This document shows positions 2,608 to 46,327 of a DNA stretch of 64,000 nucleotides, in pieces (position 1 is the first letter of the stretch; each line of letters opens with the position of its first letter). The DNA is taken from NCBI GenBank assembly GCA_964426735.1, contig CAYRRP010000003.1, positions 77,378-141,377 on the forward strand, read 5' to 3'. Made by a program: the position numbers and the translations under genes. The notes beneath the pieces are model-generated. The model made no database searches, was not told where the DNA came from, and saw nothing but the letters and a program-made list of their open reading frames with translations. The stretch is from an uncultured Candidatus Saccharibacteria bacterium. Its GTDB lineage: Bacteria > Patescibacteriota > Minisyncoccia > Phycocordibacterales > DATDWN01.

Positions 2608-2915
2608 TGACCGTTATCCTAATACATTTGTACTAATATTGCAAGCTGTGTGCTTCTGGTACGTCCATATTTGACGAACTCCTTTATTGGACTGCAAAAA
2701 ATAATTTCCACCGTACAACGAGTACGTCTACAATTATTTTTCTGGTCCGCCTCGGATTTCAATCAAATCTGAACATCCTCCGAGTTAAACTTATACAAAA
2801 AAAGCCTTGTGCAGGAGGGAGCAAAGCTCCCTCCCACAACAAGACATCGATTTTTTCCGACCTTTAAGGGTCAGGCCTCCCGCAATCGTAGTTAGGAGGC
2901 TATTATAACATACAT

Positions 2916-2971
2916 AACCGAAGAACCGAAGAACCGAAGAACCGAAGAACCGAAGAACCGAAGAACCGATG
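2916..2971. repeat. Tandem 8-bp repeat (AACCGAAG) x7 upstream of rpsL
   Basis: Six perfect copies of aaccgaag plus one imperfect copy (aaccgatg). It produces the spurious minus-strand ORF 2791-2979. Confidence 0.85.
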
Positions 2972-3050
2972 AACTGCACAGTGCAGACTGAGAGCTTCAG
3001 ATGAAGCTTTCTGCAAAGAATAGTACACCCCCCTCAAAATTTGTCAAGTG

Positions 3051-3954: not shown

Positions 3955-4112
3955 CAAATAACGGCTCTGGTCTTTTTCTCGCATCTCATCTTCTAAAATT
4001 GTAAAAATAATTCTCACCTGCGCACTCAGGCAGGTTCAAATTATTTTTAAATTTTATAAGCGACCTGCGCGAAAAATCCTCAAAGATTCTTTATATGATA
4101 TAATATGCGCAT

Positions 4113-5577: not shown

Positions 5578-6171
5578 ATGAAAACATTTGAAGAAATGAA
5601 ATTTAATATCGGCGAGCTTATCGGTATTTCTACCGACTCAGTTACCGAACACCTCAAGCTCTACGCTGGATATGTAAAACATGCCAACCTTATCATTTCT
5701 AAAATCGAAGAAATGAGTAAAGATTCAGAAACAAATGCATATGCACTTGGCGAGCTTCAACGACGTTTTGGTTTTGAATTTGATGGTATGAGAAATCACG
5801 AATATTATTTCAAATCACTCGTTGGTGGTGCAACAGCAATCACCGAAGGTGGCGCGCTTCATACTGCAATCGTTGAAGAATTCGGTTCGTTTGATGCATG
5901 GTTTGCACGTTTTAAAGCAGTAGCACTCACTCGTGGTATTGGCTGGGCAATGCTCTACTACGATAAAACAACTGGACGACTTTTAAATGCATGGGTAGAC
6001 GAACAACACCTCGGACATCTCACCGGACTCTCACCTATTCTTGCGCTTGATGTATGGGAACATGCATTTGTACCTGACTACAAAGCATCTGGGAAAAAAG
6101 CATACGTTGAAGATTTTTTCAAAAATCTCAATTGGTCTGTGATTGAAGAAAATTTCAAAAACGCACAATAG
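5578..6171 (+). CDS. Fe/Mn superoxide dismutase
   Basis: 197 aa; ...LALDVWEHAFVPDYKA... (the DVWEHAYY-type motif) and an N-terminal helical hairpin. Confidence 0.9.
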   Translation: MKTFEEMKFNIGELIGISTDSVTEHLKLYAGYVKHANLIISKIEEMSKDSETNAYALGELQRRFGFEFDGMRNHEYYFKSLVGGATAITEGGALHTAIVEEFGSFDAWFARFKAVALTRGIGWAMLYYDKTTGRLLNAWVDEQHLGHLTGLSPILALDVWEHAFVPDYKASGKKAYVEDFFKNLNWSVIEENFKNAQ

Positions 6172-19782: not shown

Positions 19783-19809
19783 TTTTATCTTCTCGAATAA
19801 TTACGAACC

Positions 19810-19923
19810 AATAAAATTGCTTTAGGTGCGCGGCGCAAGAAGGTTTTGGAGCGAGCCTTACTTGTCGTAAGGCAAGTGGCAAAACTTGAATTGCAACAAA
19901 GCAGATGAAGTGATTTTATTGTG
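19810..19923 (+). repeat. Copy A of the ~110-nt hairpin-repeat family
   Basis: Terminal inverted segments AATAAAATTGC...GTGATTTTATT and the central hairpin CCTTAC-TTGTC-GTAAGG. Homologous to 39031-39139 and 40303-40410 with compensatory changes. Confidence 0.6.
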
Positions 19924-33143: not shown

Positions 33144-33291
33144 AAATTTCCACTGGTGCGGGTGGGGAGAATCGGTCACGAGTAATTCTGGTTCCGTCGA
33201 ACCAGAATTCTCTCGACCCCGACTCGCGACCCACTCTGGTGAGCGGGTGCCCCCGCTCCGTCTTTCGATTCCCCATGCAAAGCTCTGCTTT
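33144..33291 (-). ncRNA. GC-rich structured RNA-like element (el2) directly downstream of tRNA-Gly(TCC); it shares that tRNA's 5' 7 nt and 3' 18 nt and has an encoded CCA
   Basis: Minus-strand read: GCGGGTGAG-[GCAAAGC-AGA-GCTTTGC]-ATGG-GGAATCGAAAG-[ACCCGCTC-ACCA-GAGTGGGT]-...-[AATTCTGGTTC-GACG-GAACCAGAATT]-ACTCGTGACCGATTCTCCCCACCCGCA-CCA. ~60% GC. Two homologous copies sit at 37149-37496. Confidence 0.5.
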
Positions 33292-33336
33292 GCTCACCCG
33301 CACACATATCAAAAAACCGGCATAAAACCGGTTTTT
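33292..33336. terminator. 45-nt perfect palindromic hairpin (19-bp stem, loop TTTTATG) between tRNA-Gly(TCC) and el2; candidate bidirectional terminator or processing site
   Basis: ACACATATCAAAAAACCGG-CATAAAA-CCGGTTTTTTGATATGTGT. The outer base pair includes the tRNA discriminator position. Confidence 0.55.
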
Positions 33337-33406
33337 TGATATGTGTGCGGGTGGGGAGAATCGAACTCCCGTATACTGCTTGGAAGGCAGTCATTCTACC
33401 ACTAAA
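33336..33406 (-). tRNA. tRNA-Gly (anticodon UCC)
   Basis: GCGGGTG-TA-ATTTAGTGGTAGAAT-G-ACTGC-CTTCCAA-GCAGT-ATAC-GGGAG-TTCGATT-CTCCC-CACCCGC-A. 71 nt, CCA not encoded; same architecture as Bacillus tRNA-Gly(UCC). Confidence 0.9.
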
Positions 33407-33479
33407 TTACACCCGCGATTGAAATACTCTAGCAGAAAAACAAGTATTCGGCAATTAAAAATGTTATATACTTATACGT

Positions 33480-36153: not shown

Positions 36154-36226
36154 CGGGGTGTGGTGTAACGGCTAACATGCTTGATTTGGGATCAAGTGAC
36201 TCCGGGTTCGAATCCCGGCACCCCGA
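36154..36226 (+). tRNA. tRNA-Pro (anticodon UGG)
   Basis: CGGGGTG-TG-GTGTAACGGCTAACAT-G-CTTGA-TTTGGGA-TCAAG-TGACT-CCGGG-TTCGAAT-CCCGG-CACCCCG-A. 73 nt with G37. Confidence 0.9.
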
Positions 36227-36247
36227 CAATAGATTTTCTAAATACAC

Positions 36248-36673: not shown

Positions 36674-37027
36674 ACATATATAGTATACAAGCTTAATCCT
36701 TTCACGTGTAACTATATTATATGTTACATATGTAACATATAATATTTGAGTAGGTACAGGAGGATTCGTAGTATAAAGTACACAATTTCCTTTGTATAAA
36801 GCCATTTTTGGAGACTTTTGGACACAAAGTCTTATACTTTGAAGCCTGTCAAAGACTGTCTCTAATACACATGTCCACAGACTTATCCACAGTTTTCAAC
36901 ATATTTTGTGTAAAACTGACTTTAATTTAAAGACTTTGTCCCACAGAATAGGGGTTTAATGGAGACAGTCCGTGATCAAATAGACAAAACTTGGCAAAAG
37001 CTAGAAAAAAGGTATGATACATATATT

Positions 37028-37101
37028 GCACCCGTAGCTCAATTGGATAGAGTATTTGTCTTCGGAACAAAGGGTTGCAGGTTCGAGTCCTGCCGGGTGC
37101 A
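37028..37101 (+). tRNA. tRNA-Arg (anticodon UCG)
   Basis: GCACCCG-TA-GCTCAATTGGATAGAGT-A-TTTGT-CTTCGGA-ACAAA-GGGTT-GCAGG-TTCGAGT-CCTGC-CGGGTGC-A. 74 nt. Confidence 0.88.
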
Positions 37102-37106
37102 CACGA

Positions 37107-37135
37107 CAAAAAATCCCAACTGCTTGGGATTTTTT
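37107..37135 (+). terminator. Intrinsic terminator after tRNA-Arg
   Basis: AAAAAATCCCA-ACTGC-TTGGGATTTTTT. Confidence 0.6.
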
Positions 37136-37148
37136 GCTACGTGTGCAC

Positions 37149-37290
37149 AACGGAGACATGTTTTTTCAGCAGAAAAAAAGGTCGAGTTGTGGACCGAAGG
37201 AAATTTCAATTCGACGGAATTGAAATTATCCGAAGTGTACAAGACAAAACCCTATGTATTTGAATTTCTCCCCACTTTGTGTAAAATGAA
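37149..37290 (+). ncRNA. Degenerate third member (el4) of the tRNA-Gly-associated structured element family, just upstream of tRNA-Gly(GCC)
   Basis: ACGGAG...TTTTTT-CAGCAG-AAAAAAA...GGTCGAG...AAATTTCAATTC-GACG-GAATTGAAATT...TTTCTCCCC. The GACG-loop hairpin and flanking motifs are homologous to el2 with compensatory substitutions. Confidence 0.35.
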
Positions 37291-37296
37291 GGGGAA

Positions 37297-37367
37297 GCGG
37301 CTATGGTTTAGTGGTAGAACACGTCCTTGCCAAGGATGAGATTCGGGTTCGATTCCCGGTAGCCGCA
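37297..37367 (+). tRNA. tRNA-Gly (anticodon GCC)
   Basis: GCGGCTA-TG-GTTTAGTGGTAGAAC-A-CGTCC-TTGCCAA-GGATG-AGAT-TCGGG-TTCGATT-CCCGG-TAGCCGC-A. 71 nt. Confidence 0.9.
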
Positions 37368-37370
37368 CAG

Positions 37371-37496
37371 AAAAATCGGAGATTTTTATCCGGGAATCGA
37401 AAGCCGGAGCGAGGGTTCCCGTCAGCAGACGGGACCGCGAGGCCGGGTCGGGAAATTTTACGAGTGGCGACGAGTAAAATATTCCTGACCGATTCC
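37371..37496 (+). ncRNA. GC-rich structured RNA-like element (el3) starting 3 nt after the tRNA-Gly(GCC) 3' end; homolog of el2
   Basis: [AAAAATC-GGA-GATTTTT]-ATCC-GGGAATCGAAAG-CCGGAGCGAGGG-[TCCCGTC-AGCA-GACGGGA]-...-CTGACCGATTCC. The hairpins are at the same positions as in el2 but built from different, compensating sequences. Confidence 0.5.
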
Positions 37497-37545: not shown

Positions 37546-39018
37546 ATGAATACAAACTTCACTATCCCTGTCGAAGTGTCACGTGTAACACAAACCCTCG
37601 AAAATGCCGGTTTTGAGGCTTTTTTGGTTGGTGGATGTGTACGAGATCTTATCCTCAACAAAAAACCAAAAGATTGGGATGTTACTACCAACGCAACACC
37701 TGAGCAAATCATTGCTTTGTTTCCACATACCTTTTACGAAAACAACTTTGGAACAGTTGGTGTTGTTTCAGATGAAACAGAAGATGACACTCTTAAAACT
37801 ATTGAAGTTACGCCATACCGTCTTGAATCAGAGTATTCTGACAATCGACGCCCAGACGCTGTTACTTTTTCACAAAATCTCACAGATGACTTAAGGCGAC
37901 GCGACTTCACCATTAACGCCCTTGCATACTCAGTATCTAAAGGACAACTCACTGATGTCTTTAATGGACAAGCTGATATTTCTGCTCAAACTATACAAAC
38001 AGTAGGGAATGCGGTCGAAAGACTCACTGAAGATGCCCTTCGTATCATGCGAGCAGTGCGGTTTCATGTGGAACTTGGCTTTATCCTTTCACGTGAAACG
38101 GAAAAAGCGGTACTTGAACACGGTCATTTACTACAAAACATCTCAAAGGAACGCATTCGTGACGAATTTACAAAGATTATTATGTCTCCGCAGCCAATGA
38201 ATGGCTTACTCATGCTGAAAAAGCTGAATTTACTTCAGTATATTGTACCAGAACTGGAAAAAACTATTGGGGTAGAGCAGAACCGGGCACATTCATACGA
38301 TGTATGGGAACATTTACTTCGAAGCCTCCAGACTGCAGCAGATAAGAACTGGCCTCTTGATATTAGACTTACCGCTTTATTTCACGATATTTCAAAACCT
38401 GAGACACGTCGATGGGGAAAAGAGCAGAATACGTGGACATTTTACGGTCATGAAGTAGTTGGTTCACGTGTAACACGGAAAATACTTACTGATTTGCGAT
38501 ATCCGAATAAACTAATTGATAAAGTGGTGACAATGGTGCGATGGCATATGTTTTTTTCTGACACAGAACAGATAAGCCTCTCTGCGGTCCGTAGAATGAT
38601 CGTAAATGTTGGACGAGAGAATATCTGGGATTTGATGAATGTACGCATCTGCGACCGTGTAGGAACTGGTAGACCCAAAGAAGATCCGTACCGCCTCCGC
38701 AAATACCATGCAATGATAGAGGAGGCTCTTCGTGACCCGATTACTGTAGGAATGTTGAAAATAGATGGTAAACGTTTAATCGATGTTACACAGGGAACAC
38801 CTGGTCCTAAAATAGGGTATACACTTCATGCATTACTCGAAGAGGTACTCGAAGATCCAACTAAAAACACTGTGGAATATTTAGAAAAACGCTCTGTTGA
38901 GCTCTATACTATGGATGAGATCGAATTAAAAAAGCTCGGTGAACAAGGTAAACAAACGAAAGAAGAAATAGATCAGCAGGAAATCTCAAAAATTCGTAAA
39001 GGACACAAAGTAAAGTAG
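37546..39018 (+). CDS. cca: CCA-adding tRNA nucleotidyltransferase with a C-terminal HD domain
   Basis: ...FEAFLVGGCVRDLILNKKPKDWDVTTNATPEQ...RRDFTINALA (Pol-beta NTase head) and ...LFHDISKP...GHE (HD). Start placed at ATG 37546 (MNTNFTIP); the ORF-track start at 37498 would overlap el3. Confidence 0.85.
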   Translation: MNTNFTIPVEVSRVTQTLENAGFEAFLVGGCVRDLILNKKPKDWDVTTNATPEQIIALFPHTFYENNFGTVGVVSDETEDDTLKTIEVTPYRLESEYSDNRRPDAVTFSQNLTDDLRRRDFTINALAYSVSKGQLTDVFNGQADISAQTIQTVGNAVERLTEDALRIMRAVRFHVELGFILSRETEKAVLEHGHLLQNISKERIRDEFTKIIMSPQPMNGLLMLKKLNLLQYIVPELEKTIGVEQNRAHSYDVWEHLLRSLQTAADKNWPLDIRLTALFHDISKPETRRWGKEQNTWTFYGHEVVGSRVTRKILTDLRYPNKLIDKVVTMVRWHMFFSDTEQISLSAVRRMIVNVGRENIWDLMNVRICDRVGTGRPKEDPYRLRKYHAMIEEALRDPITVGMLKIDGKRLIDVTQGTPGPKIGYTLHALLEEVLEDPTKNTVEYLEKRSVELYTMDEIELKKLGEQGKQTKEEIDQQEISKIRKGHKVK

Positions 39019-39030
39019 TTCTGCAAATAA

Positions 39031-39139
39031 GTTAAACTGCTTCAGATGCTAGGCGCGAGAGAATTTGTGAGTGAGTTGTACTTGTCGTACGGTGAGCGAA
39101 CAAATTTGAATCGCAACAACGCAGATGGAGTAATTTAAC
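39031..39139 (+). repeat. Copy B of the ~110-nt hairpin-repeat family (candidate plus-strand structured RNA)
   Basis: GTTAAACTGCTTCAGATGC...TTGTAC-TTGTC-GTACGG...GCAGATGGAGTAATTTAAC. The closing stem and central hairpin contain G.U/U.G pairs only if the plus strand is read. Confidence 0.6.
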
Positions 39140-40268: not shown

Positions 40269-40302
40269 TACTAAAAGATATTACCACACCTTGAATGAAG
40301 AA

Positions 40303-40410
40303 GTTAAATTGCTCCAGATGCTAGGCGCGAGAAAATTTATGAGTGAACCGTACTTGTAGTACGGTGAATGAATAAATTTGAATCGTAACAACGCAGATGG
40401 AGTAATTTAC
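40303..40410 (+). repeat. Copy C of the ~110-nt hairpin-repeat family
   Basis: GTTAAATTGCTCCAGATGCTAGGCGCGAGAAAATTTATGAGTGAA-CCGTAC-TTGTA-GTACGG-...GCAGATGGAGTAATTTAC. About 85% identical to copy B; its 3' end overlaps the xerC-like stop codon by 4 nt. Confidence 0.6.
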
Positions 40411-41393
40411 TTCTTTCCGTGAAATTTCTTGTGAATGTCACGCAGGTGCTTGTCGGTTACGTGTGTATAAATCTGGGTCGTAATAATGCTCGAATGACCC
40501 AACAAAGCCTGAACTGAGCGAATATCTGCTCCGTTTGAAAGTAAATCAGTCGCAAAGAGATGACGCATGGTGTGCGGTGTTACACGTTTTGAAATACCTG
40601 CTTTGATTGCATATTGTTTGATGATGCGCTCTATTGTCCGTTTGGTCAGGGGACTTGCTTCTTTACTAGTAATTTCTCGCCCTACCTGCACAAAAAGAGC
40701 ATCATTCATATCTTTACGGAGAGACAAGTACGCCTTGAGACAATTTTTTGCAGTATCTGAAAGAAATACTACTCGCACCTTTCCTCCTTTTCCTCGAATA
40801 GAAAGTTCATCGGAAGTCAGATCAATATCAGACGTGAGGGAACAGAGCTCAGAAACACGCAAACCTGTTGAAAATAATAATTCGAGAATTGCTTTGTCAC
40901 GAACTGTCTTCAAATCACTACCTTTAGGAGCATCGAGAAGGCGAGCGAGCTCATTTTCTGTAATAAGATCAAGAAGACGCTCTCCAGTTTTTGCAAGGTC
41001 GATACGCTCAGGCGCAAGAGAAGTGACACCTTCTCGAGCAAGAAACTTGAGAAACGCCCGGAGTGCAATCAGGTGATAGTTTTGAGTTTTTTTAGAAAGA
41101 GTATTTTTTTTGGCTTTATCAAGTCCTGAAAGTTGTCTGTTGAGCCACAAACGAAACTCTCGTACCACCATATCGGTGATATCTCCTGGTTTTGAAGCTT
41201 TTGTTTGCTCAAGAAAGCGTACAAGGTAATGTAAATAGTTTTGCCGAGTCTGGATAGATCGCCCTCTTTCTATTTCAAGATAGTTGAGAAAATCACGAAG
41301 AAAACGCCCTAAGGGGGTTTTCGGTATTCTTTCTTCTTCTGTCAAAGCAGGTTTGCGTTTAGACGTCTCTTTTTTAATCTTTTCCTCTGCCAT
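40407..41393 (-). CDS. xerC: Tyrosine site-specific recombinase, XerC/XerD-like
   Basis: 328 aa; N-terminal core-binding domain (...FLNYLEIERGRSIQTRQNYLHYL...) and the catalytic R...HTMRHLFAT...LGHSSIITTQIYTHV (R-H-R-Y). Adjacent to a tRNA/ncRNA-dense region; an integrase role cannot be excluded. Confidence 0.85.
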   Translation of the reverse strand: MAEEKIKKETSKRKPALTEEERIPKTPLGRFLRDFLNYLEIERGRSIQTRQNYLHYLVRFLEQTKASKPGDITDMVVREFRLWLNRQLSGLDKAKKNTLSKKTQNYHLIALRAFLKFLAREGVTSLAPERIDLAKTGERLLDLITENELARLLDAPKGSDLKTVRDKAILELLFSTGLRVSELCSLTSDIDLTSDELSIRGKGGKVRVVFLSDTAKNCLKAYLSLRKDMNDALFVQVGREITSKEASPLTKRTIERIIKQYAIKAGISKRVTPHTMRHLFATDLLSNGADIRSVQALLGHSSIITTQIYTHVTDKHLRDIHKKFHGKK

Positions 41394-43649: not shown

Positions 43650-43694
43650 TAAAAATTTATCAAGTTCGCAATGTTGAATGTACATACTTGATAT

Positions 43695-43740
43695 ATTTCT
43701 GACTTGATAGGCTTTTGACTTGATGGACTTGATGGACTAT
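43695..43740 (+). promoter_or_regulatory. Direct-repeat array of GACTTGAT(R)G units immediately upstream of the dksA/traR-like gene
   Basis: atttctGACTTGATAGgcttttGACTTGATGGACTTGATGGACTATcatg. A near-identical array lies upstream of comM (44147-44190). Confidence 0.4.
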
Positions 43741-43749
43741 CATGTACAT

Positions 43750-44109
43750 ATGATTAATACTGAATATTTTAAAGAAAAACTTGAGGCAGAATTAAAAACC
43801 GTCGAGGCTGAATTGCATACAGTGGGAAGAAAAAACCCATCAAACCCTTTGGATTGGGAAGCAAAAGAGGGTGAAATGAACACCGATACTGCAGAGGAAG
43901 CTGAAGTTGCAGAAGGTATTGAAGAGTATGAAAATAACTCAGCAATCTTGAAGCAACTAGAAATTCGATATAATGAAATAAAAGACGCTCTCGCAAAGAT
44001 AGATATGGGTACATATGGTATCTGTGAAGTTTCTGGCTTGCCGATTGAAGAAGATAGACTTGAAGCCAACCCCGCAGCACGCACCTGCAAAGCTCACATG
44101 AATTCATAA
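43750..44109 (+). CDS. DksA/TraR-family C4-type zinc-finger-like protein
   Basis: MINTEYFKEKLEAELKTVEAEL...GTYGICEVSGLPIEEDRLEANPAARTCKAH (DksA/TraR C-terminal pattern with only 2 Cys retained). Start placed at ATG 43750; the ORF-track start at 43720 is a TTG inside the repeat array. Confidence 0.65.
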   Translation: MINTEYFKEKLEAELKTVEAELHTVGRKNPSNPLDWEAKEGEMNTDTAEEAEVAEGIEEYENNSAILKQLEIRYNEIKDALAKIDMGTYGICEVSGLPIEEDRLEANPAARTCKAHMNS

Positions 44110-44146
44110 CCACAAACCCATCAGAGCTACTGTAAATACGAAAAGC

Positions 44147-44190
44147 ATTTCTGACTTGATAGACTTTGGACTTTATAGACTTGATGGACT
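44147..44190 (+). promoter_or_regulatory. Second GACTTGAT(R)G-type repeat array, upstream of comM
   Basis: atttctGACTTGATAGactttGGACTTTATAGACTTGATGGACTaaaat, followed by the 16-bp palindrome ATAGACATATGTCTAT spanning the comM ATG. Confidence 0.4.
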
Positions 44191-44201
44191 AAAATAGACA
44201 T

Positions 44202-45758
44202 ATGTCTATTTCTCAAATATACAGCGCTCAGACAAACCTCCTCGATGCCTCCATAGTGACTATAGAAGTGGACCTCTCAAAGGGGCTCCACTCTTTTTCT
44301 ATAGTAGGACTTGCAGGGAAAGCGGTGGATGAAGCAAAAGACCGCGTATCTTCTGCAATTAAAAATACCGGTTTTACTTCACCAAAAAGTAAAAACCAAA
44401 AAGTTGTTGTATCACTTGCTCCCGCTGATATCAAAAAAGAAGGACCTGCATTTGATCTCGGTATTGCTGTCGGATATTTGTGTGCCTCAGGAGACATTCA
44501 AGCGGATATGAAGAAGACTGTGTGTATTGGTGAACTTTCACTCGATGGAAGTATTCGAAAAGTGAAGGGTATTATCCCGATGATTATCGAGGCTCGAAAA
44601 AGAGGTTTTACTGATTGTATTATTCCAAAAGAAAATAGTATTGAGGCATCAGTGATACCTGACATCACCATATATCCCGCAGAAACATTACGTGAAGTGA
44701 TTGGTCATATTCACACAAACCCTCATGGAGAAAAATGGCCTGGAATAGAAAGTACTCCTATACCAACTCTTGAAATACACACTCCTGAAATCCACCTCGC
44801 GCACAATGATGTCGATATGCAGGATGTCGCGGGACAAGAGGTAGCAAAGCGCGCACTCGAAATAGCGGCGGCAGGTGGACATAATATTATTATGTATGGC
44901 CCACCAGGAACAGGAAAAACGATGCTCGCTAAAGCATGCAAAGGATTACTTCCTGAACTTTCTTTTGATGATATGCTCGAAGTTACATCGATTCACTCAC
45001 TTCACAATGGAGGAGGGGATTTGATAACCGCTGCACCGTTTCGTGCACCACACCATACTGCATCATATGTATCAGTGGTCGGAGGTGGTTCAAGCCCACG
45101 ACCAGGAGAAGTAACTCTGGCGCACAAAGGAGTACTTTTTTTGGATGAGATGCCCGAGTTTAGTACACAAGTACTCGAAACACTTCGTGAACCACTCGAA
45201 GAAAAGAAGGTGCGTATCAGTCGAGCAAAAGGAAGTGTAGTATACCCTGCACAATTTATCCTCGTGGGAGCAATGAATCCGTGTCCCTGTGGATACTATG
45301 GAGTGAAGGGAAAGGAATGTATTTGTTCACCGATTCATATTCAAAAATACAAACGAAAACTTTCGGGACCAATCGCTGATCGTATTGATATATGGGTTGA
45401 AGTAAATACAGTCGAACACTCAGAGCTTACAAAAAAGGGGACAGGTGAAACAACGGCCGATATTAAAAAACGTGTTCAAGCAGCTCGAAATATCCAAAAA
45501 AATCGATATATCGAAAAAGGAATCAGTCTCAACAGCGAACTCTCCGGCAAACAGCTTGTTGAAATGATTCACCTCTCTCCTGAAGCAAAAGGAATACTGG
45601 AAGCATCAGCAAAAAAGTTTGATATTTCAGCACGTGCATATCATCGAATCATCAAAACCGCACAAACAATTGCCGACCTTGCAGAAAGTGTACATATCCA
45701 ACCAGAGCATATTCTCGAAGCATTACAATATCGCCCAAAAGCGTATCAGATTATTTAA
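44202..45758 (+). CDS. comM: YifB/ComM Mg-chelatase-like AAA+ ATPase
   Basis: 518 aa; Lon-like N-terminal domain, Walker A GPPGTGKTMLA, Walker B LFLDEMPEF, and a C-terminal ChlI-type zinc-finger-like CPCGYYG. Confidence 0.9.
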   Translation: MSISQIYSAQTNLLDASIVTIEVDLSKGLHSFSIVGLAGKAVDEAKDRVSSAIKNTGFTSPKSKNQKVVVSLAPADIKKEGPAFDLGIAVGYLCASGDIQADMKKTVCIGELSLDGSIRKVKGIIPMIIEARKRGFTDCIIPKENSIEASVIPDITIYPAETLREVIGHIHTNPHGEKWPGIESTPIPTLEIHTPEIHLAHNDVDMQDVAGQEVAKRALEIAAAGGHNIIMYGPPGTGKTMLAKACKGLLPELSFDDMLEVTSIHSLHNGGGDLITAAPFRAPHHTASYVSVVGGGSSPRPGEVTLAHKGVLFLDEMPEFSTQVLETLREPLEEKKVRISRAKGSVVYPAQFILVGAMNPCPCGYYGVKGKECICSPIHIQKYKRKLSGPIADRIDIWVEVNTVEHSELTKKGTGETTADIKKRVQAARNIQKNRYIEKGISLNSELSGKQLVEMIHLSPEAKGILEASAKKFDISARAYHRIIKTAQTIADLAESVHIQPEHILEALQYRPKAYQII

Positions 45759-46131: not shown

Positions 46132-46327
46132 TGGTTACTCCTAAGTAACATTATACAATAATTATGTAAATTAAGCAATAAAAATGTTTTTGGCTTTTAA
46201 AAGTATAAAACTTTCACAATTTCGCCAAGGTCGCTTATGAAATTTTAAAATATTCCTCACCTTACAACGAGTAAGGTTCGTCATATTTTAAAATTTCAGA
46301 AGATGAGATTGGTGAAATTTGGAAGTT

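Follow-up and report, generated by a model that had tools for sequence, protein, structure and literature searches.

The stretch of DNA analysed here comprises 64,000 nucleotides (nt) of contig CAYRRP010000003.1 from an uncultured Candidatus Saccharibacteria bacterium and will be referred to as the window. It contains four transfer RNA (tRNA) genes, called with ARAGORN and Rfam, and three structured elements, el2, el3 and el4, each of which lies behind a tRNA gene. On the minus strand, tRNA-Gly(TCC) (33345-33416) is the host gene of el2. A further gene, tRNA-Pro(TGG), is located at 36154-36227. On the plus strand, tRNA-Arg(TCG) (37028-37102; Rfam tRNA score of 69.9 bits) and tRNA-Gly(GCC) (37297-37368) are the host genes of el4 and el3, respectively, and el3 is followed by cca, the gene of the CCA-adding enzyme (37546-39018, plus strand). 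All three elements belong to one family that occupies the trailers of tRNA and transfer-messenger RNA (tmRNA) genes of Patescibacteria; el2 and el3 are intact, whereas el4 has decayed. The elements always lie on the strand of the host tRNA, as an earlier reading of this DNA (the original prediction) had stated for the three copies of the window.

Elements in the window

Element el3 (37371-37496, plus strand) begins 3 nt past the end of tRNA-Gly(GCC). Its first module, termed P0, is a 7-bp hairpin with a GGA loop (37371-37387, AAAAATC-GGA-GATTTTT). This is followed by the 5' strand of helix P1 (CCGGGAATC, 37390-37398), an invariant GAAA junction (37399-37402), helix P2 (GCC...GGC, with an invariant GGAGCG / CGCGAG internal loop) together with hairpin A and its AGCA loop (37403-37443), helix P3 (with near-invariant GGUCG / UGACC) together with hairpin B and its GGCG loop (37446-37490), and finally the 3' strand of P1, GATTCC (37491-37496). 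The P1 5' strand complements positions 56-65 in the T-loop and T-stem of tRNA-Gly(GCC). What had been described as a 'CGATTCC terminus' (37490-37496) marks where a second copy of the tRNA's own 3' end begins, at the equivalent of T-loop position C56. In el3 this copy is shortened to just 7 nt, compared to 19 nt in el2.

In the case of el2 (33156-33303, minus strand), the modules follow in the same order as in el3. The element opens with an acceptor complement (GTGCGGGTG, 33303-33295), followed by P0 (33293-33277), the 5' strand of P1 (33274-33267) and the core, and it ends with an exact 19-nt copy of the tRNA 3' end (33174-33156). The proximal copy of this repeat is formed by the last 19 nt of tRNA-Gly(TCC) (33363-33345), with 19/19 nt identical. 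The copy is followed by CA, so that an RNA would end in ...CCA, and the whole element is closed by a 9-bp acceptor-like stem. Overall, el2 resembles a tRNA with an encoded CCA and a giant T-loop. A perfect 26-bp inverted repeat (33295-33320 / 33328-33353) links the 3' end of tRNA-Gly(TCC) to the 5' end of el2.

That el2 and el3 belong to one structured family, as originally predicted, is borne out by several measures. A sequence-only hidden Markov model (HMM), built on 79 foreign copies and zero rows from the window, matched el3 with an E-value of 6.9e-22 and el2 with one of 1.8e-20. Their fold energies are -56.1 kcal/mol (el3, z -4.7 against shuffles) and -84.2 kcal/mol (el2, z -8.7), their scores in the covariance model R1 described below are 88.6 and 93.7 bits, and they have a 30-nt block of 87% identity in common. 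The start of el3, the placement of its modules and the order shared with el2 were likewise found as predicted.

The third copy, el4 (about 37135-37242, plus strand), is real but degenerate, since R1, although built without it, still matches it with 26.2 bits (E 4.9e-7). It retains hairpin A (TTTTTT-CAGCAG-AAAAAAA) and hairpin B (with a GACG loop) but has lost P1, GAAAG and the P3 base. The family membership proposed for el4 is therefore upheld. Its proposed 3' terminus is not: the segment TTTCTCCCC at about 37270-37280 lies between the -35 and -10 boxes of the promoter of tRNA-Gly(GCC), varies among sister genomes and is probably not part of el4. The idea that el4 and el3 bracket tRNA-Gly(GCC) has to be given up as well. 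Instead, el4 is the trailer element of the upstream tRNA-Arg(TCG) and not of tRNA-Gly; in two sister loci (L131 and L134, see below) the element at the tRNA-Arg site ends with a partial copy of the tRNA-Arg 3' end (TCCTGCCGG).

Between tRNA-Arg and most of el4, a palindromic terminator-like hairpin can be read from the sequence (AAAAAATCCCAACTGCTTGGGATTTTTT, 37103-37148, plus strand). In its outer arms, GCACACG / CGTGTGC, the last bases of tRNA-Arg pair with a downstream complement. Equivalent long hairpins occur in sister loci, with perfect arms in L132 and L134 and imperfect ones in the window and L131, and their sequences differ by genome. The loop motif CAACUGCUUG of this hairpin is seen again in the P0 hairpins of other loci.

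Promoter-like sites around el3 and el4 were found solely ahead of tRNA-Arg (TTGGCA-16-TATGAT, 36991-37018) and tRNA-Gly(GCC) (TTGAAT-16-TAAAAT, 37260-37287), both on the plus strand. A terminator-like site was sought across tRNA-Gly(GCC), el3 and cca, and none was found. Most simply, el3 would lie within a single tRNA-Gly-el3-cca transcript. The domain content of cca (Pfam PolyA_pol, PolyA_pol_RNAbd and HD domains) is complete when the gene is read from the ATG at 37546. The resulting 490 amino acids (aa) compare with 487-492 aa for most of the closest listed homologues, which supports this ATG as the true start, in line with the prediction.

A three-way junction behind tRNA and tmRNA genes

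A scan pattern was derived from the unpaired conserved segments (GAAAGNCGGAGCG...CGCGAG...GGTCG) and run on species-representative genomes. Matches were obtained in at least 119 genome loci, nearly all of them from Patescibacteria; about 108 of these are real and about 11, located in GC-rich coding DNA, look like chance matches. Over the whole window the covariance model R1 detected el2, el3 and el4 plus the antisense strand of el2 (11.9 bits), and no further member.

An alignment of 81 copies shows a common fold: P1, GAAA, P2 with hairpin A, 2 nt, P3 with hairpin B, and P1 again, thus a three-way junction within an element of about 110-150 nt. As the alignment was drawn from a sequence-pattern scan, the pattern segments are invariant by ascertainment, and the covariation lies in the stems outside them. 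Paired cells amount to 91.5%, compared to 31-44% when the partners are slid, and cells with double changes to 520, compared to 68-124 in the slid controls and 173 in shuffles. P1 covaries in 6 of its 7 pairs, and the middle pair of P2 occurs as C-G 32 times, as G-C 23 times, as A-U 16 times and as U-A 4 times. Because G.U pairs (153) outnumber A.C mismatches (45) and one G.U pair in P3 is kept in 81/81 copies, it is the tRNA-sense strand that folds. With covariation supporting one strand, the family is predicted to be a conserved structured RNA. The conserved junction holds GAAA, GGAGCG/CGCGAG, GGUCG/UGACC and several tandem G.A motifs. In 56% of 107 copies, the region directly 5' of P1 forms a significantly more stable fold than its shuffles do; in most of them this is a hairpin of the P0 type, typically of 9-10 bp and often with the loop AACUGCUU. 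P0 is an optional module.

Linkage to tRNA genes was found in the pattern matches as well as with R1. A same-strand tRNA gene lies 20-340 nt upstream in 84 of 121 pattern matches and belongs to any of 19 isotypes; several matches without an upstream tRNA follow a tmRNA gene instead, and an SmpB-like gene, identified by reading the sequences, is found about 1 kb upstream in 11 loci. When R1 was applied to 100 related loci, 99 of 157 tRNA or tmRNA genes were followed by an element. The occupied genes span all 20 isotypes plus 7 of 8 tmRNA genes. Seen from the elements, 97 of 125 R1 matches lie within 350 nt downstream of a same-strand tRNA or tmRNA gene, and most others at locus edges. The special link to tRNA-Gly that had been suggested from the window is thus not a property of the family, as all 20 isotypes and tmRNA are occupied. 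The distance from the tRNA end to the GAAAG junction can be as short as 40 nt or less (eight loci), and direct fusions of tRNA and element exist without a terminator.

The 3' end of the element duplicates the 3' end of the host tRNA. The median exact match is 16.5 nt, compared to 5 nt in a control region, and an exact repeat of at least 12 nt, mostly 19 nt, is present in 54 of 84 loci. The 19-nt repeats run from the equivalent of T-loop C56 through the discriminator plus one base. The first part of this duplicate is the 3' strand of P1, and because the 5' strand of P1 complements the tRNA-end copy, P1 varies with the host tRNA. Accordingly, copies of the same genome can have common hairpin modules while P1 fits each local tRNA (L043, L057). 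In locus L103 the repeat is kept at 19/19 though most of it, including the acceptor part, is unpaired, so RNA pairing alone fails to explain the repeat. This points to a duplication at the DNA level rather than to a constraint of RNA pairing.

With Rfam 15 at gathering scores, the window yielded the four tRNAs and nothing else, and 12 related loci yielded tRNAs alone. In E-value mode, carried out on 5.5 kb and on isolated el3 and el2 with E up to 10, no match came near a gathering score: the best one on el2 was mir-877 with 19.7 bits (E 0.096, gathering score 47), and on el3 the best score was 10.8 bits. A literature search found no description of the element family. The family is thus absent from the Rfam 15 catalogue and not described in the literature found. 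A report on anticodon-loop introns at position 35/36 (PMC13011429) is unrelated to the element.

A number of known RNAs and systems were considered and rejected because no model hit was obtained, the junction anatomy was wrong or the partner gene was missing. These were tmRNA, permuted tmRNA, RNase P, signal recognition particle RNA, Y RNA and the hammerhead, and likewise retron msr/msd, the IS110 bridge RNA, the omega RNA of TnpB/IscB, integron attC sites and T-loop group I introns.

Turnover in sister genomes

Sister loci were recovered via the CCA enzyme, and the identities given here refer to the CCA protein compared with that of the window. Some sites lie outside the fetched stretches, namely the el2 site in L131, L135 and L136 and both the tRNA-Arg and el2 sites in L137. 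At the el3 site, an intact element is present in the window as well as in L131 (93% identity, 83.6 bits), L136 (88%, 93.1 bits) and L137 (84%, 80.6 bits). It is absent in L135 (89%) and L133 (87%), where the locus is rearranged, and in L134 (81%). In L132 (90%) the core is gone and P0 is kept. There, at 5905-5955, diverged remnants of the P1 arms abut (agagatcgaaa next to atcgattccc), so that this is not a clean empty site; a core of roughly 90 nt appears to have been excised in one piece, at the junction or very close to it.

The two other sites vary in a similar manner. At the tRNA-Arg site, a relic of the type seen in the window (type 1) is present in L132 (39.9 bits) and in L136, where the first 18 nt are left. 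In L131 and L134 a different core variant occupies the site, with R1 scores of 14.4 and 12.8 bits, respectively, and L133 and L135 carry no element. At the el2 site, L132 has an orthologue with different hairpins (61.3 bits), L133 one of 36 bits, and L134 none. Presence, absence and replacement among sister genomes lend support to the suspicion of mobility voiced in the original prediction.

At the same time, the four el3 orthologues show compensatory double changes at 6 pairs; in L136, for example, the middle pair of P2 has become a compensatory U-A. Judging from these comparisons, selection on the fold maintains the elements, which can nevertheless be lost or replaced. Beyond the sister loci, tandem copies are found in L103, L005, L031, L096 and L122, and many copies are degenerate.

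The divergent core variant behind tRNA-Arg(TCG) (L131, 61-190; L134, 4330-4460) is laid out as P1, GAAC, a long hairpin with an AGCA-type loop and a hairpin with a TGAC/GACG loop, and it ends in the partial tRNA-Arg 3' end. Since this variant exists and is detected only weakly by R1, the family is broader than the search pattern.

It was also observed that tRNA genes are trailed by very long, near-perfect palindromic terminator-like hairpins composed of an A-tract, a GC stem and a T-tract (window 33295-33353 and 37103-37148; L131, L132, L134). When an element is present, the outer arms of the palindrome reach into the last bases of the tRNA. At the empty site after tRNA-Gly(TCC) in L134, the palindrome is present and the tRNA-complementary extension is missing.

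About 3 kb downstream of el3, the window encodes a Xer-type tyrosine recombinase of 328 aa (40407-41393, minus strand; Phage_int_SAM_1 and Phage_integrase domains), which is syntenic by rpsO in L131, L133 and L134. It is the sole recombinase seen near elements and probably the enzyme of chromosomal dimer resolution.

Several other repeats were seen in the window. A family termed D1 has three copies of about 115 nt (19806-19917, 39026-39137 and 40298-40409, plus strand), 71-88% identical to the reference copy. On the plus strand each forms a single long, imperfect hairpin (-45 and -51.8 kcal/mol, with z of -5.6 and -8.8); folding of the minus strand is much weaker. Their internal loops are GA-rich, resembling hairpin B of the tRNA-linked elements. 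One copy starts 8 nt beyond the stop codon of cca, and another directly adjoins the Xer-like gene at its 3' end. D1 had no Rfam match at gathering score and no R1 match, and it may be what the earlier reading had called 'el1'. An 8-nt unit, AACCGAAG, forms a tandem array of about 8-9 repeats (2908-2982, plus strand). Two segments of about 100 nt, 42 kb apart (3975-4074 and 46220-46317), are inverted and 84-88% complementary over two blocks, and the latter is also a local palindrome at 46234-46302. Finally, an 86-nt direct repeat of 77% identity with reiterated GACTTGAT(A/G)G motifs (43679-43764 and 44131-44216, plus strand) lies upstream of two plus-strand open reading frames (ORFs) and may be a common regulatory region.

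A possible mobile unit or trailer RNA

Our preferred explanation, held tentatively and with somewhat less than an even chance of being correct, is that the element is non-autonomous, that it creates a second copy of the tRNA 3' end, and that it encodes a structured RNA which is transcribed together with the tRNA. What the data show is one family with a common fold, its linkage to tRNA genes, the repeat and the turnover; integration by recombination, transcription and a cellular role of the RNA are inferences. Such a tiny element would be gained, duplicated and lost at tRNA 3' ends, and the direct repeat of about 19 nt would be the attachment (att)-like scar of recombination in the T-loop. The recombinase might be supplied in trans; alternatively, recombination might spread the element by way of the conserved tRNA flank. 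It is the sense strand that would make the conserved fold, most probably as RNA read through from the tRNA promoter.

Genomic islands and prophages reportedly integrate into tRNA and tmRNA genes by means of tyrosine integrases, with sublocations that include the T-loop (Reiter et al. 1989; Williams 2002), and the scar left by such islands is of the kind proposed here. Like the islands, the elements target the 3' part of tRNA and tmRNA genes, have a repeat that runs from the T-loop to the gene end (even if only 7 nt of it are kept in el3), leave an intact, regenerated tRNA and form tandem arrays. Presence and absence among relatives may be a further likeness. Unlike the islands, the insert measures only about 0.15-0.25 kb, no integrase lies in or near it and no protein is encoded, the folded core is deeply conserved, and one family serves more than 20 tRNA species. 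Another likeness is found in cis-mobilizable elements (CIMEs) and integrative mobile elements exploiting Xer (IMEX; the CTX/RS1/TLC arrays at dif), which are non-autonomous, att-bounded and tandemly arrayed and rely on a recombinase encoded elsewhere, as is proposed here. The folded single-strand site of CTX consists of inverted att-like arms to which the arms of the element are comparable. Those elements, in contrast, are kilobases long and use one fixed site, while the interior of ours is a conserved RNA-like three-way junction and its dependence on a recombinase is a proposal. Miniature inverted-repeat transposable elements (MITEs) and repetitive extragenic palindromic (REP) sequences are also short, protein-less, multi-copy, strongly folding and intergenic, and have decayed copies; the P1 arms would qualify as inverted repeats. 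The elements differ from them by their strict placement and orientation behind tRNA and tmRNA genes, by a tRNA-end repeat of about 19 nt instead of a short target duplication, and by unpaired nucleotides conserved across the whole superphylum. We rate the family as an att-bounded tRNA-site element, yet one in which an integrase, a general acceptor mimic and a ribozyme core are all absent, and in which the repeat is combined with a deeply conserved RNA-like core.

A series of points weighs against such a mobile element. Firstly, all-against-all clustering of 828 adjacent ORFs revealed no integrase, transposase or reverse transcriptase recurring within 4 kb of the about 108 copies; the recurrent neighbours, to judge from reading the sequences, appear to be housekeeping genes (SmpB, ribosomal protein L19, IF2, ABC ATPases). 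Secondly, a third repeat copy that would mark a larger island was not found further out, so that the unit is self-contained at about 0.15-0.25 kb. Thirdly, blastn searches of phage and plasmid collections gave no match, and a donor or circular form of the element is not known. A pattern scan of viral contigs gave 11 matches. Ten of them fall into GC-rich coding DNA and are due to chance; the other (L122, IMG/VR contig IMGVR_UViG_3300033463_005745) is a triple tandem array beside genes that look like ordinary metabolic ones, and is not a phage. Fourthly, one recombinase would need to act on more than 20 different tRNA 3' ends, and a mobile element does not account for how P1 comes to match a new tRNA. 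Instead of integration, gene conversion involving the tRNA, which lies about 150 nt off, could keep the repeat identical. In addition, el3 has passed down vertically, its structure intact, across 84-93% identity of the CCA protein, which fits a host function as well as a selfish one. Lastly, terminator-like hairpins stand between tRNA and element in many loci, and no promoter was seen that belongs to the element itself, so that its transcription is putative.

The ORFs at the element-bearing end of the L122 contig resemble, by eye, a GDSL-like lipase, a cytidine deaminase, a UDP-glucose epimerase and a serine acetyltransferase. The viral filing of this end looks doubtful.

The strongest competitor, which we consider possible though clearly less probable than the mobile element, is a housekeeping trailer RNA that serves the host. 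Its role could be that of a module for processing or insulation; alternatively, it could imitate the 'top half' (acceptor/T) of the tRNA and in this way recruit RNase P, 3' exonucleases or the CCA-adding enzyme. The RNA would be released with the tRNA, and gene conversion or selection would keep the duplicated 3' end. The very high occupancy behind tRNAs of all isotypes speaks for it, as do the maintenance of el3 with compensatory changes in four related genomes and the terminator-free fusions. So does el2 with its acceptor-like stem and CCA end. In this respect the elements recall tRNA 3' trailers and tRNA-like RNAs (the 3'ETS-leuZ sponge, the tRNA-like domain of tmRNA, YrlA, mascRNA), which also arise from or beside a tRNA transcript; el2 further recalls them in its closing stem, which resembles an acceptor, in a helix derived from the T-stem and in its encoded CCA. 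The family as a whole departs from this picture. An acceptor complement of 7/7 is present in just 19 of 84 copies, about a quarter (mean shuffle p 0.09), and CCA follows 7 of 46 element copies compared to 5 of 46 tRNA genes and is thus not enriched, so tRNA mimicry is not general. The acceptor stem, T-arm and CCA of el2 are not general in the family, and the T-loop is replaced by the core, a large insertion at that position. Unlike the known tRNA-like RNAs, the elements have no match in Rfam 15 and form a multi-copy family with many decaying members. Moreover, between close relatives many copies have decayed, been deleted or been replaced, or stand in tandem, many tRNAs of the same loci carry no element, and terminator-like hairpins often separate tRNA and element. 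Two related ideas were dropped: a retro-copied mature tRNA, as CCA enrichment was not seen, and a general tRNA acceptor mimic, as a minority of copies qualify.

An unlikely alternative is that the elements are folded single-stranded DNA (ssDNA) recombination sites, in which P1, made up of a complement and a copy of the tRNA 3' end, imitates a duplex target and a host Xer-type tyrosine recombinase inserts the strand, comparable to integron attC sites or the attP hairpin of the CTX phage. The inverted arms around a folded core of variable length, the strand-specific folding, the att-like repeat and the tandem arrays are what such sites would show. The conserved Xer-like gene at 40407-41393, syntenic in sisters, and the missing promoter would fit as well. 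Set against this are the invariant unpaired GAAA and GGAGCG / CGCGAG, the tandem G.A motifs and the universal G.U pair, all typical of RNA tertiary structure, whereas the interiors of attC sites are without such sequence conservation. In addition, the Xer gene is syntenic with or without an element, and nothing ties it to the elements.

An equally low probability is given to a variant of the mobile element in which the folded strand of the protein-less unit, be it RNA or ssDNA, itself specifies the insertion site and a host recombinase, for example the Xer-type enzyme, does the chemistry. The P1 complement would pair with the universal T-loop C56-R57-A58 and the 3' strand of the T-stem and thereby present, or guide the unit to, a matched tRNA 3' end, and a changed P1 would retarget the element.

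A self-cleaving ribozyme is very improbable. Here the junction would cut at one of its borders, for example between GUGAC and C, and turn tRNA-element or tandem-element transcripts into unit RNAs. A small three-way junction with invariant junction nucleotides, the tandem arrays, the location beside tRNAs and the mobile-element-like behaviour would suit it. Rfam ribozymes gave no match on isolated elements with E up to 10, though, and the hammerhead core CUGAUGA...GAAA...UH misfits the junction lengths of 4, 2 and 0 nt read from the alignment, where neither CUGAUGA nor a UH element is present. An element specific to tRNA-Gly, or a leader regulating cca, is hardly credible: two window copies lie behind tRNA-Gly genes and el3 precedes cca in four genomes, but the family serves tRNAs of every isotype (20) as well as tmRNA, the genes downstream being unrelated, el4 sits behind tRNA-Arg, and no intact el3 accompanies the cca homologues of L132, L133, L134 and L135.

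The genomes of Patescibacteria are very small, and few mobile elements or regulatory RNAs have been recognised in them, yet an uncatalogued structured element was found here behind a large share of their sampled tRNA and tmRNA genes. In practical terms, this element accounts for spurious ORF starts, as in the case of cca, and for duplicated tRNA 3' fragments in these genomes, and the covariance model R1 could serve to annotate further copies. If the element is a host RNA, it would be a new and widespread component of tRNA expression in a major bacterial radiation. If it is mobile, it would be smaller than any other kind of element known to target tRNA 3' ends, and it would raise the question of how a gene-less unit of about 0.2 kb moves and retargets. 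Retargeting via P1, if true, would explain how one core came to stand behind more than 20 tRNAs and tmRNA, and would amount to a nucleic-acid-programmed integration system in the smallest bacterial genomes.

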